Of a stretch of 64,000 nt of DNA, positions 20,796 through 58,565 are shown one piece after another (within the stretch, counting starts at the first letter, position 1; every line of letters begins with the position of its first letter). Both the position numbers and the translations under genes were made by a program. The notes beneath the pieces are model-generated. The model saw nothing but the letters and a program-made list of their open reading frames with translations, had not been told where the DNA came from and ran no database searches. The stretch comes from Minisyncoccota bacterium (GTDB lineage Bacteria; Patescibacteriota; Minisyncoccia; UBA6257; XYB1-36-10). The stretch covers positions 215,713-279,712 of the forward strand of contig JBAZJH010000001.1 of NCBI GenBank assembly GCA_041651415.1, given 5' to 3'.

Positions 20796-20858
20796 TATTT
20801 TCAAGCCTGCCTGCTGGTAGGCAGGGCAGGTAGGCGGCAGGCAGGAATTTAAGAATGG
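20796..20858. repeat. palindromic repeat family 2 (AAGCCTGCCTGC(C/T)GGTAGGCAGG…)
   Basis: TTCAAGCCTGCCTGCTGGTAGGCAGGGCAGGTAGGCGGCAGGCAGGAATTTAAGAA. Related copies at 57181-57212 and 58521-58565. Confidence 0.5.
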
Positions 20859-21164: not shown

Positions 21165-21413
21165 ATGCATATACTTCATCTGTTGAAAAGCATTAATTTT
21201 TCAAAAAGTTATATCGGTATAACTAATAATCCAGAAAGAAGATTAAAAGAACACAATTCTGGAAAAAGTTTTTACACAAAAAAGTATTCGCCATGGAAAA
21301 TAATTTATACCGAAGAATGTAAGAATTTCAAAGAAGCAAGAGAACGGGAAAAATTCTACAAATCAAGCGTAGGAAGAAGAGCTTTAAAAAAGATATTTGA
21401 TAAGTTAGGATAG
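21165..21413 (+). CDS. GIY-YIG nuclease-family small protein (UPF0213/YhbQ-like)
   Basis: …YIGITNNPERRLKEHNSG…TKKYSPW…EAREREKFYK… matches the GIY-YIG core (GIY…YIG…R…H…G…E). 82 aa. Bracketed by the tRNA-Gln 5' duplication. Confidence 0.8.
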   Translation: MHILHLLKSINFSKSYIGITNNPERRLKEHNSGKSFYTKKYSPWKIIYTEECKNFKEAREREKFYKSSVGRRALKKIFDKLG

Positions 21414-21421
21414 ATTATATT

Positions 21422-21495
21422 TGCCGGATCGTCTAAAGGTAGGACATGGGCCTTTGAAGCCCAGTATCTTGGTTCGATTCCAAGTCCGGCAGCCA
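21422..21495 (+). tRNA. tRNA-Gln (anticodon TTG), CCA encoded
   Basis: Folds by hand. Acceptor TGCCGGA/TCCGGCA with the U1:A72 pair typical of bacterial tRNA-Gln. D-stem GTCT/GGAC. Anticodon stem TGGGC/GCCCA with loop CTTTGAA. T-arm CTTGG-TTCGATT-CCAAG. Discriminator G, then CCA. Confidence 0.85.
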
Positions 21496-34707: not shown

Positions 34708-34906
34708 AAAGGTATTATAGCAAAAAAACAAAAAACGGAAAAAGTTGACAGTTCAAAATAAAGTGTGGTATATAAGAGACAGATTTTTAACATATTCGAA
34801 ATCCGCTTACACCGAATCCGCCTATCCGCTTTGCGGCGAGGCAAACCGGATTCCTCCGACCTTGTGTCGGAGGAATGACAAAGACAAAGCAAGAAGGAGA
34901 AAGAAA

Positions 34907-35274: not shown

Positions 35275-35323
35275 TGTAATAATGTGCCTCCGACCAGAGT
35301 CGGAGGAATAAAAGCTAAAGCTT

Positions 35324-55394: not shown

Positions 55395-55775
55395 AGGGGG
55401 TTGAAAATAAAAAAGAGGTTTGATAATATTGAAATCAGTACTTCAAACCGGTTATAGAAGAACTGAAGGAAGAGTAAAACTCAAACGACTTATGGAAGCC
55501 GTTTGGGCGGAAAATGGGAAGCGGTTCGACCGCACTTTGCTTGGTTATCAACAAACCGGCAAAAGGAGAAATATCATGTTGAAAGACAAAATGGTCGCGG
55601 GTTCCCGCGGTCAACCACAGGAATTCGGTTTCGGTTTTGAGTCTACAGTGTCTACAGTTCGGTTCTGCGACAGCGACGCGGTGGAGACTACTCTCTAAAG
55701 AGCACGCGCTTAGTGCATAGGGGGGAGATGTCTTCTACCCGGCCCGAGGCAAAAAGTCTCGGGCCTTTTAATTTT
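55395..55775 (+). other. cassette copy A: promoter (TTGAAA-17-TAATAT), ~140-nt conserved leader, SD+sORF (55576-55698, 40 aa), intrinsic terminator
   Basis: The leader CAGTACTTCAAACCGGTT…AGAGTAAAACTCAAACGACTTATGGAAGCCGTTTGGGCGGAAAATGGGAAGCGGTT is repeated almost exactly in copy B. Shine-Dalgarno AAAAGGAGAAATATCATG. Terminator GGCCCGAGGCAAAAAGTCTCGGGCCTTTT. Confidence 0.45.
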
Positions 55776-55776
55776 T

Positions 55777-56145
55777 AATATTGACAAAAAATAAATCGAT
55801 TTGATATTATAAAAGCAGTACTTCAAACCGGTTGAAGAAAGAGTAAAACTCAAACGACTTATGGAAGCCGTTTGGGCGGAAAATGGGAAGCGGTTTCGGC
55901 CGCACTTCGCTTGGCTAGCAAGCCAGCGGAGGGAGAAATTATCATGTTTACCCAAAAGACGGCGACCTGTGGATGTCCACGCGGTCGCCCGGAAACGATG
56001 GCTCAGTTTTTTTCAGTCACGACGGCCCCCAGAATCAGCGACGCAGTGGAGACTTTCCAAAGCACACGCTAAGGTAAACACCCCAAGTGCGTAGGAACTC
56101 TCCTACCCGGCCCGAGACAAAAAGTCTCGGGCCTTTTAATTTTTA
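55777..56145 (+). other. cassette copy B: promoter (TTGACA-18-TATTAT), conserved leader, SD+sORF (55944-56072, 42 aa), intrinsic terminator
   Basis: Same leader minus a 16-nt segment. Shine-Dalgarno GGAGGGAGAAATTATCATG. The peptide differs from copy A except for a shared …SDAVET… stretch. Terminator GGCCCGAGACAAAAAGTCTCGGGCCTTTT. Confidence 0.45.
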
Positions 56146-56150
56146 ATATT

Positions 56151-56262
56151 GAAATGAAACTCCACGGCCTTACAGCCGTGGTATCTTCAAGTTTCACCCC
56201 GCCAAAGGCGGGGTTTTATTAAAAATGAAGCCCCGCAGCCCTATGGTCGTGGAGTTTCATTT
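56151..56262. repeat. intergenic mosaic palindromic repeat (A+B enclosed by a long inverted repeat)
   Basis: ATGAAACTCCACGGCCTTACAGCCGTGGTA…GTTTCACCCCGCCAAAGGCGGGGTTTTATTAAAAATGAAGCCCCGCAGCCCTATGGTCGTGGAGTTTCAT. Confidence 0.65.
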
Positions 56263-57120
56263 TTGGCAGTTCGGGCAAAATCTTGTTCCACGCCCGCCGA
56301 CCTTCATTTTTTCTATTTTTGATTTGCGGCAACGCGGGCACAATTTTTTTTCTTTTTGATAAACCTTAAGAAATTTAGCAAAACCTCCGGGATGGCCGTC
56401 GCTATTTCTAAAATCGCGAAAAGTAGTCCCCTTGTGTTTAATCGCTTTTTTCAAAATCGATTGGCATAGCAAAAATATTTTTTCTTTTTCTTTTTTTGTC
56501 AAACTTTCCAACTTTCTATCCGGCCGGACCTTCGCTTCAAAACAAATTTCATCCGCGTAAATATTGCCGATTCCCGCGATAAGACCTTGATTCATCAAAA
56601 CCGCTTTTATTTTTCCTTTTTTATTTTCCAATAATTTTAAAAAAGATTTTTTTGTAAAAGCGGGAGAAAGCGGGTCAAGCCCGTATTTTTCTTCCACTGC
56701 CATTTTTTCTTTCTCATTAACCAGTTTCATATAACCGAATTGGCGCATATCGTTAAAGAAAAGCCGGCTATTATCGGAAAAAGAAAAAATGATGTGCGAA
56801 TACTTATTCGGCAAATCTTTTAAGTCGCTATCGGAAATTTTGTGTCCGCCGGCAGTTATCTTTTCTTTTTTCTTATAAATAAGCTGGCCGGTCATTTTTA
56901 AGTGAGTAAGCAAAAAAAGGCCGTTTGAGAGATAAAAAATTAAAAGTTTTCCGGCGCGGGAAATTTTGATAAATTTTCGCCCTTCCATTTTTTTGATAAA
57001 TTCAGAAGCATTTCCGCGCACGATTTTTTTCTTTCTGACTTCCACTTTTTTTATCCTTTTTCCTAAGATGATTTTTTCTAAATCCTTTTTTATTGTTTCT
57101 ACTTCCGGAAGTTCGGGCAT
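56257..57120 (-). CDS. mutM: formamidopyrimidine-DNA glycosylase (Fpg/Nei family)
   Basis: N-terminal MPELPEVE (catalytic Pro2/Glu3), H2TH region, C-terminal zinc finger CPRC…CPNC. Confidence 0.85.
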   Translation of the reverse strand: MPELPEVETIKKDLEKIILGKRIKKVEVRKKKIVRGNASEFIKKMEGRKFIKISRAGKLLIFYLSNGLFLLTHLKMTGQLIYKKKEKITAGGHKISDSDLKDLPNKYSHIIFSFSDNSRLFFNDMRQFGYMKLVNEKEKMAVEEKYGLDPLSPAFTKKSFLKLLENKKGKIKAVLMNQGLIAGIGNIYADEICFEAKVRPDRKLESLTKKEKEKIFLLCQSILKKAIKHKGTTFRDFRNSDGHPGGFAKFLKVYQKEKKLCPRCRKSKIEKMKVGGRGTRFCPNCQK

Positions 57121-57168
57121 GGTAATTATGTCATTTTTACGACTTTAAATAGGTGTTTTTATTCCGCC

Positions 57169-57549
57169 TGTCATTCCAGCGAAAGCCTGCCTGCCGGTAG
57201 GTATGGCTGGAATCTAGGTTAATTGATAAATTTATAATATAAATCCTCCCATTTTGGGTTCTCTTTTTCAATAAGCCCCAATTTCCAATTTCTTTTCCAT
57301 GCTTTCAAATTTTTTTTCTCTTTTTATTGCATCGTAAGCATTAACAGTTTCTTCATAATAAACAAGCTTATCAACTCCGTATTTTTTAGTGAATCCTTCA
57401 ACTAGTTTATTTTTATGCTCTCCAATCCTTCTTAAAAGATCAGAGGTAACGCCAACATACAAGGTACCATTTCTTTTACTGGCTAAAATGTAGACGTAAT
57501 AAGATTTCATAAATAACTTTCTGGATTCCCGCCTTCGCGGGAATGACAG
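57169..57549. mobile_element. ~380-bp mini-element: GIY-YIG gene bounded by 14-bp terminal inverted repeats CTGTCATTCC(A/C)GCG, each end forming an ATTCC…GGAAT hairpin
   Basis: Left end CTGTCATTCCAGCG at 57169-57182. Right end CGCGGGAATGACAG at 57536-57549, whose reverse complement CTGTCATTCCCGCG matches 13/14 positions. The left hairpin also embeds a family-2 palindrome (GCCTGCCTGCCGGTAGG). Confidence 0.5.
57268..57510 (-). CDS. GIY-YIG nuclease-family small protein (UPF0213/YhbQ-like)
   Basis: MKSYYVYILASKRNGTLYVGVTSDLLRRIGEHK…TKKYGV…LVYYEE…REKK… is a textbook GIY-YIG core. 80 aa. Confidence 0.85.
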   Translation of the reverse strand: MKSYYVYILASKRNGTLYVGVTSDLLRRIGEHKNKLVEGFTKKYGVDKLVYYEETVNAYDAIKREKKFESMEKKLEIGAY

Positions 57550-57627
57550 ACAAGAAAAGAGTTTTGCATCTATCTTAAATTCAATAAAAAGAGATCTTAC
57601 AGAAATGACTGGAAAAAATAATAAAAA

Positions 57628-58520: not shown

Positions 58521-58565
58521 CTCAAGCCTGCCTGCCGGTAGGCAGGAATTTGAGAATAGATTGAA
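58521..58565. repeat. palindromic repeat family 2 copy with flanking inverted arms
   Basis: TCTATTCTTAAATTCTCAAGCCTGCCTGCCGGTAGGCAGGAATTTGAGAATAGATT. Centre CCTGCCTGCCGGTAGGCAGG, arms AATCTATTCT…/…AGAATAGATT. Confidence 0.55.

Follow-up and report, generated by a model that had tools for sequence, protein, structure and literature searches.

In the window, a stretch of 64 kb of Paceibacterota DNA that was analysed as a whole, the interval between fpg and nfo was found to hold a frameshifted Ssn-family nuclease gene between two inverted hairpins. The locus is a degraded instance of the known Ssn system and not a new type of element; its features match those of the published Ssn/SRM system. The assignment as an Ssn/SRM module is based on the GIY-YIG domain, the spacing of the catalytic residues and the SRM/NTS match, with SsnA compared by its published description, and the probability of this reading was estimated to be about 0.85.

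The Ssn family consists of single-domain GIY-YIG proteins (cd10448), 94 aa long in Neisseria meningitidis (Chenal et al., Nat Commun 2025, PMC11893778). Ssn binds the 28-nt hairpin repeat NTS, CGTCATTCCCGCGMAVGCGGGAATCYRG, within which the dRS3 repeat of Neisseria is found; the binding is restricted to ssDNA and to the NTS strand, and the cleavage occurs a few nt 5' of the NTS (PMC11893778). The mutation of Y6, Y17 and E64 of SsnA abolished the cleavage, and split half-sites were still cleaved (PMC11893778). A degenerate SRM was reported near 71% of Ssn homologues and on both sides in 42% of them (PMC11893778). The discoverers likened the Ssn units to IS200/IS605 and REP/RAYT, the same comparison as was drawn in the initial annotation, and hypothesised that they are mobile; in Neisseria, Ssn decreases the integration of NTS-flanked incoming DNA (PMC11893778). 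The phylum Patescibacteria is not mentioned in PMC11893778, and the present locus extends the Ssn family to it.

The observed anatomy of the locus is listed below. All the features named in the initial annotation were present, with coordinates that were 1 base too high.

56257-57120, minus strand: Fpg, neighbour gene
57121-57627, no strand: complete inserted segment from the nfo stop to the fpg start, defined by comparison with relatives
57168-57181, plus strand: left terminal repeat, CTGTCATTCCAGCG
57168-57217, plus strand: downstream SRM, inverted, composed of CTGTCATTCCAGCG, a 24-nt loop and GCTGGAATCTAG
57184-57208, no strand: decayed nested palindromic repeat (CCTGCCTGCCGGTAGG...) in the loop of the downstream SRM, with intact copies elsewhere
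57219-57311, minus strand: out-of-frame remnant of the ancestral ~96-aa gene, TAA stop at 57219-57221
57268-57510, minus strand: ssn-like GIY-YIG ORF in its present form, 80 aa, PF01541 match
57310-57317, minus strand: A8 homopolymer, the point of frame loss, with 1 additional A compared to the family frame
57521-57549, minus strand: upstream SRM/NTS-like hairpin, CTGTCATTCCCGCGAAGGCGGGAATCCAG, ending 10 nt 5' of the ATG
57536-57549, read as reverse complement: right terminal repeat, CTGTCATTCCCGCG, 13/14 match to CTGTCATTCCAGCG
57591-57612, minus strand: probable decayed second upstream SRM (CCAGTCATTTCTGTAAGATCTC), from the alignment with the sister strain L001
57628-58467, minus strand: Nfo, neighbour gene

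The unit measured 382 nt from outer end to outer end and 378 nt from GTCA to TGAC, in agreement with the unit of ~380 bp proposed before, and both neighbours were confirmed. The 14-bp terminal inverted repeats were seen as described, with identity at 13 of 14 positions. The two hairpins of the unit are inverted copies with GTCA outward on each side. On the gene strand, the unit starts with CTGTCATTCCCGCG-AAGG-CGGGAATCCAG, followed by 10 nt, the ATG and the ORF, and it ends with the ancestral stop, 1 nt, and then CTAGATTCCAGC, the loop and GCTGGAATGACAG. The module runs in the same direction as the genes lepA-nfo-fpg-dsbA. As the gap between the upstream SRM and the ATG is only 10 nt, there is no room for a promoter inside the unit, and ssn is therefore probably transcribed by read-through from nfo; the promoter scan called nothing at the hairpins.

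The 80-aa ORF had been described as a canonical GIY-YIG ORF. The domain was verified: Pfam GIY-YIG (PF01541, E 2.3e-15) was the only domain detected, and Y1_Tnp, the HUH/Y1 transposase domain, was not found in the unit. As a correction, the ORF is the frameshifted version of a ~96-aa gene. The catalytic residues Y7, Y18, R28, H32 and E65 are retained, and the C-terminus is out of frame. Y7, Y18 and E65 are invariant in the family alignment, and their spacing of 11 and 47 residues equals that of Y6, Y17 and E64 in SsnA. In the alignment with 37 homologues, the window protein departs from the family consensus past residue 67. The alternative frame reads KEKKNLKAWKRNWKLGLIEKENPKWEDLYYKFIN up to a stop, the family consensus being REKQLKKWNRKWK..LIEK.NP.W.DLY, and restores the near-invariant C-terminal W, K, L, I, N, W and D. 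The frame-corrected gene encodes 96 aa and ends at 57219-57221, the family mode being 95-96 aa. The ORF is only 80 aa long because of a +1 frameshift in the A8 run, which removes the conserved C-terminal third. Proteins of 93-109 aa are encoded at 124 of 127 family loci; the truncated three are the window copy, the sister strain L001 and an unrelated MAG (L034), every one of them at the same A-run. Due to the observed frameshift, the window copy is most likely inactive or crippled, as judged from its reading frame. No identical sequence of the 80-aa protein is on record. Among the solved structures, only distant UPF0213 matches and spurious TyrRS matches were obtained for it, and the NCBIfam search gave nothing above the cutoff.

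A hairpin at each end had also been claimed, and both sequences fold. The folding energy of the right hairpin (57521-57549) was -12.3 kcal/mol with a z of -5.3 to -5.5, and 0 of 200 shuffles equalled it; the corresponding values of the left hairpin (57168-57217) were -11.9 kcal/mol and -2.8. The left hairpin has the same 8-bp ATTCCAGC/GCTGGAAT stem as the right one and a 24-nt loop with a nested palindrome. The published SRM pattern is HGTCWYN(0-2)YYVSBRHN(0-5)WNVSBRGN(0-2)RNCYNB, with a loop of at most 5 nt and a location within 500 bp of the gene. The segment 57521-57548 on the minus strand was the sole match of the pattern in the 64-kb window, compared to 0.06 matches expected from 100 dinucleotide-preserving shuffles, and it lies within 500 bp on the 5' side of the gene. 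The upstream hairpin is identical to the NTS consensus at 27 of 28 positions. The downstream hairpin, on the 3' side, has the GTCA...CYAG frame with a CTAG tail and the 8-bp stem, and it falls outside the published pattern for the sole reason that its 24-nt loop exceeds the limit of 5 nt. The large loop may be tolerated in the downstream SRM, given the cleavage at split half-sites in the published system.

The segment 57591-57612 is probably a decayed second upstream SRM, as judged from its alignment with CCGTCATTCCCGCTAAATCCA in the sister strain L001, where the motif is better preserved; tandem SRMs are frequent at other homologous loci. The SRM content of the window amounts to a single strict copy besides two or three degenerate ones. 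The loop of the upstream SRM differs between L001 and the window by a 12-nt insertion. In the Rfam search over the region, nothing reached the gathering threshold; a weak FtrB match at 57500-57572 (E<=1) scored 26 bits against the cutoff of 66 and was judged to be due to chance. Neither hairpin has a T-run, and the promoter and terminator scan called no terminator-like site there. Two Logan contigs (L084, L085) break off precisely at the inner hairpin edges, which was read as a palindrome or repeat effect in the assembly graph and not as biology.

Further palindromes were observed in the window. A second palindromic repeat family, CCTGCCTGCYGGTAGGCAGG, occurs intact at 20806-20825 and 58527-58546, and palindromes of this type are nested in the SRM loops of two other loci as well, L026 from Kerfeldbacteria and L039 from Saccharibacteria. 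At 34846-34881 on the minus strand, in the leader of a small ORF and distant from any ssn, there is a solo SRM-like hairpin, TTGTCATTCCTCCGACACAAGGTCGGAGGAATCCGG; its CCTCCGAC...GTCGGAGG stem is repeated ~440 nt downstream (35289-35310).

The family proved to be very large, with only 14 of the 8000 candidates scored being not significant. At least 160 homologous loci with 55-73% amino-acid identity were collected in the genome and metagenome scans, their members being ~95 aa long. The hosts are Patescibacteria, four Proteobacteria classes, Dehalococcoidia, Ignavibacteria, Planctomycetota, Dadabacteria, Melainabacteria and others. The linkage of the gene and the hairpins was observed throughout the family. 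For the hairpin count, 117 loci with 120-nt flanks were used, and GTCR, a perfect 8-bp stem and a 3-9-nt loop were required. A sense hairpin was present upstream of the gene at 62 loci, an antisense hairpin downstream at 65 and hairpins on both sides at 44, compared to 6 of the 3366 background 120-nt windows from the same loci, resulting in an approximately 300-fold enrichment beside the gene. There were 33 distinct perfectly paired stems, among them ATTCCCGC, ATCCCCGC, ATTCCGGC, ATGCCGGG and ATCCCAAA, and the frame GTCA...CCAG was unchanged throughout.

The units from GTCA to TGAC had a median length of 360 nt (range 348-461 nt), and the inverted layout with GTCA outward was shared by the window and 44 other units. 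No target-site duplication was detected in the 44 units, and the base 5' of GTCA was only biased to T or C. Between loci in unrelated contexts, the nucleotide similarity extends from about -30/-47 relative to the ATG to about +28/+37 relative to the stop, a span that corresponds to the gene and its hairpins. Two copies per genome were found in several cases (L006/L028, L049/L076, L065/L072), and these paralogues are 76-81% identical at the nucleotide level. Two close relatives, L113 (~1880-2500) and L115 (1-493), are 90-94% identical apart from a ~110-nt indel carrying a canonical SRM, CGTCATTCCGGCGCACGCCGGAATCCAG, which represents the gain or loss of a solo SRM. No near-identical copy in another context was present among the matches listed, where the closest metagenome relative had 73% identity. 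A phmmer search of the six-frame ORFs of the 64-kb window revealed no second ssn and returned only the distant ORF at 21165-21413.

The proposed check of the fpg-nfo spacing in relatives revealed an empty site. The synteny lepA-nfo-fpg-dsbA-pgi is kept in the relatives. In L086/L087 (Ca. Pacebacteria GCA_028709185.1), whose Nfo is 83% identical, the junction reads TAA-AA-ATG, with 2 nt separating the nfo stop from the fpg start; in L091 (65% identical) the nfo-fpg spacer is 9 nt. An artificial empty junction would read …ACAAAATAA-AA-ATGCC…. Since the spacers of the relatives are 2 and 9 nt, the segment 57121-57627 (507 nt) is an insertion in the lineage of the window. Beyond the hairpin-bounded unit of 382 nt, the insert has 78 nt more at one end and 47 nt more at the other, and its borders therefore do not coincide cleanly with the hairpins; the upstream excess holds the putative decayed second SRM. 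In L088-L090 (66% identical), a different insert of 446 nt is found at the same junction (~3847-4292 in L089), containing an unrelated 118-aa ORF on the opposite strand with no Pfam match. The nfo-fpg junction seems to take insertions repeatedly.

The comparison of the window with L001 revealed 0 differences in the 156 nt of ssn codons 29-80, whereas the adjacent nfo genes are 88% identical at the nucleotide level. This mosaic identity points to a recent exchange or conversion of a part of the element between the two strains. As the block of codons 29-80 is identical, the frameshift shared by the window and L001 may be recent as well.

Three other explanations of the locus were weighed. As the gene is flanked by two genes of base-excision repair and shares their orientation, it could be a common housekeeping nuclease of the fpg-nfo repair cluster, and the hairpins would then be terminators or attenuators of a generic kind without relation to the protein. 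This explanation is largely refuted and retains hardly any probability: the gene is absent at the same junction in the syntenic relatives, and homologues in unrelated contexts retain the same hairpins. The lack of T-runs and terminator-like calls and the ~300-fold enrichment beside the gene rule out generic terminators, a doubt that had been raised already in the initial annotation. A functional module in spite of the frameshift, in which some full-length Ssn is regained, as by a phase-variable or programmed switch, through slippage of transcription or translation on the A8 run, is improbable. A runs of such length are slippery, as is known from the programmed slippage of the IS3/IS630 type, and the frameshift is located within the 8-A homopolymer; the downstream frame is open and wholly consensus-like up to its own stop, and the single independent truncation, in L034, shares the same A-run. 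However, as 124 of 127 family members are in frame, slippage is not a trait of the family, the intact downstream frame may merely reflect a recent mutation, and the block carrying the mutation is identical between the window and L001.

The third explanation regards SRM-ssn-SRM as a minimal autonomous transposon-like or homing-like element, whose own nuclease, by its action on the terminal hairpins in ssDNA, drives the excision, copying and spread of the unit and also of solo SRMs; it can be entertained only tentatively. The architecture is IS-like, as was remarked on by the discoverers of Ssn (PMC11893778). The insertion polymorphism at the nfo-fpg junction, the homologues across phyla at 55-73% amino-acid identity, the end of the between-locus similarity at the outer hairpin edges, the two copies in several genomes and the SRM-carrying indel between L113 and L115 agree with mobility, and the identity of codons 29-80 between the window and L001 suggests a recent partial exchange. 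On the other hand, GIY-YIG enzymes hydrolyse DNA and are not known to form a covalent intermediate. Lacking such an intermediate, the reaction has no apparent strand-transfer step, and Ssn as a transposase would have no obvious chemistry and would require host recombination or repair. The inverted motifs provide one cleavable site per strand, which makes a single-strand excision of the IS200/IS605 type unworkable as such. Moreover, the within-genome paralogues are old, judged by their 76-81% identity, no near-identical copy exists elsewhere among the matches listed, the hairpins do not form the borders of the 507-nt insert, and the conserved flanking hairpins are equally explicable as recognition or regulatory sites. 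In Neisseria, the integration of NTS-flanked DNA is lowered by Ssn, not raised (PMC11893778), and no paper showing the mobility of Ssn units was found in the later literature searched.

The more specific proposal that SRM-ssn-SRM units are a self-mobilising class, which would move through ssDNA intermediates with a hydrolytic GIY-YIG nuclease replacing the transposase and with host repair or recombination completing the move, is doubtful. If it were true, the insertion at the nfo-fpg junction would be an example that can be dated, and the sister lineage would supply the empty site. Of the minimal nuclease-only mobile element suggested initially, the hairpin-nuclease-hairpin unit was confirmed and is found repeatedly in different phyla; a self-mobilisation by the nuclease would be no more than a hypothesis. 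The suggestion of an active or recently active family was not upheld for the window, because the copy is frameshifted, the window has no second copy and the other GIY-YIG ORF belongs to a different subfamily.

As an Ssn/SRM module, the locus would be expected to work by analogy with the characterised homologues, from which its enzymatic activity, cut positions, expression and biological role are inferred. The module came into this Paceibacterota lineage within the 507-nt insertion exactly between nfo and fpg. In the ssDNA state, the GTCA-CCAG motif with its enclosed 8-bp stem and loop would fold and be bound by Ssn, and the enzyme would cut by hydrolysis a few nt 5' of TGTCA, and only on the strand reading GTCA...CCAG. 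The minus strand is predicted to be cut at ~57551-57553 and the plus strand at ~57164-57166; since the motifs are inverted with GTCA outward, these cuts would be external to the unit and on opposite strands. Patescibacteria are considered to rely on DNA uptake, and a nuclease specific for incoming ssDNA could therefore matter to them. Taken alone, the window locus is one more, probably dead, Ssn member. Its value lies in the comparative evidence on the mobility of NTS-ssn-NTS units, the question left open by the discoverers: a close relative in which the site is cleanly empty, a similarity of unit size across unrelated contexts and a mosaic identity of two strains.

Two other regions of the window were recorded. 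The ORF at 21165-21413 encodes an 82-aa GIY-YIG protein with UPF0213 and Slx1 structures as the best matches and lies directly upstream of tRNA-Gln (21422-21495). It had been counted as one of two such small GIY-YIG ORFs; this pairing failed, as the ORF is UPF0213/Slx1-like, only distantly related to ssn and has different flanks. In the segment 21096-21495, a duplicate of the first 25 nt of tRNA-Gln precedes this ORF and is split by a 38-nt hairpin (cccgcctcg...cgaggcggg); the segment looks like an insertion at the 5' end of the tRNA with a partial target duplication. At 55401-56160, between fpg and the dsbA-like gene, there is a tandem duplication of a non-coding unit of ~369 nt. In each copy, a promoter-like TTGACA/TTGAAA-17-TATTAT/TATAAA stands at the start and a GGCCCGAGRCAAAAAGTCTCGGGCC+TTTT terminator at the end. 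The tandem unit had no Rfam match, and in the relative L086 the corresponding interval is only 70 nt long. The duplication may be a pair of small-RNA genes of no known kind or another insert.

The locus was compared with four known systems. The literature search on COG2827 and on GIY-YIG with terminal inverted repeats gave nothing relevant. UPF0213/YhbQ (PDB 1zg2, 1ywl) and Slx1 are likewise small GIY-YIG-only proteins, but the window ssn matches 1zg2 only distantly (E 8.5e-4), and the ORF at 21165-21413 fits that clade better. With the GIY-YIG homing endonucleases (I-TevI, Seg proteins) the locus shares the GIY-YIG catalytic fold and the flavour of a selfish element. In contrast, these enzymes have ~250 aa with a C-terminal DNA-binding domain, whereas the window protein has ~96 aa in its ancestral form, no such domain and a score of 24.9 bits with TIGR01453, the model of group I intron endonucleases, below the cutoff of 56. 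The window gene is located outside any intron or phage, and a long dsDNA homing site contrasts with the hairpin-adjacent ssDNA inferred as the target of the window protein.

The REP/BIME-RAYT (TnpA-REP) and IS200/IS605 systems are alike in that a small gene lies between short GC-rich hairpins recognised as ssDNA by its product, that the hairpins occur also solo or clustered, and that a target-site duplication is lacking. They differ by an HUH/Y1 transposase with a covalent intermediate, in place of which the window has a hydrolytic GIY-YIG nuclease. In IS200/IS605, the two subterminal hairpins are located on one and the same strand, on which both ends are processed; the window hairpins are inverted, for which cleavage on opposite strands is predicted. 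Compared to Ssn/NTS, the window differs in its host, a member of Paceibacterota (CPR), in the frameshift of the gene, in the 24-nt loop of one hairpin holding another palindrome, and in the number of SRMs, which reaches hundreds per genome in Neisseria and is not expanded in the 64-kb window. It is like SsnA of N. meningitidis (NMV_0044/NMB0047, CAX49033.1; PMC11893778) in the ~95-aa single-domain GIY-YIG protein, in the hairpins of the form GTCA-ATTCCCGC-loop-GCGGGAAT-CCAG, in the inverted NTS-ssn-NTS layout and in the spacing of the catalytic Tyr, Tyr and Glu.
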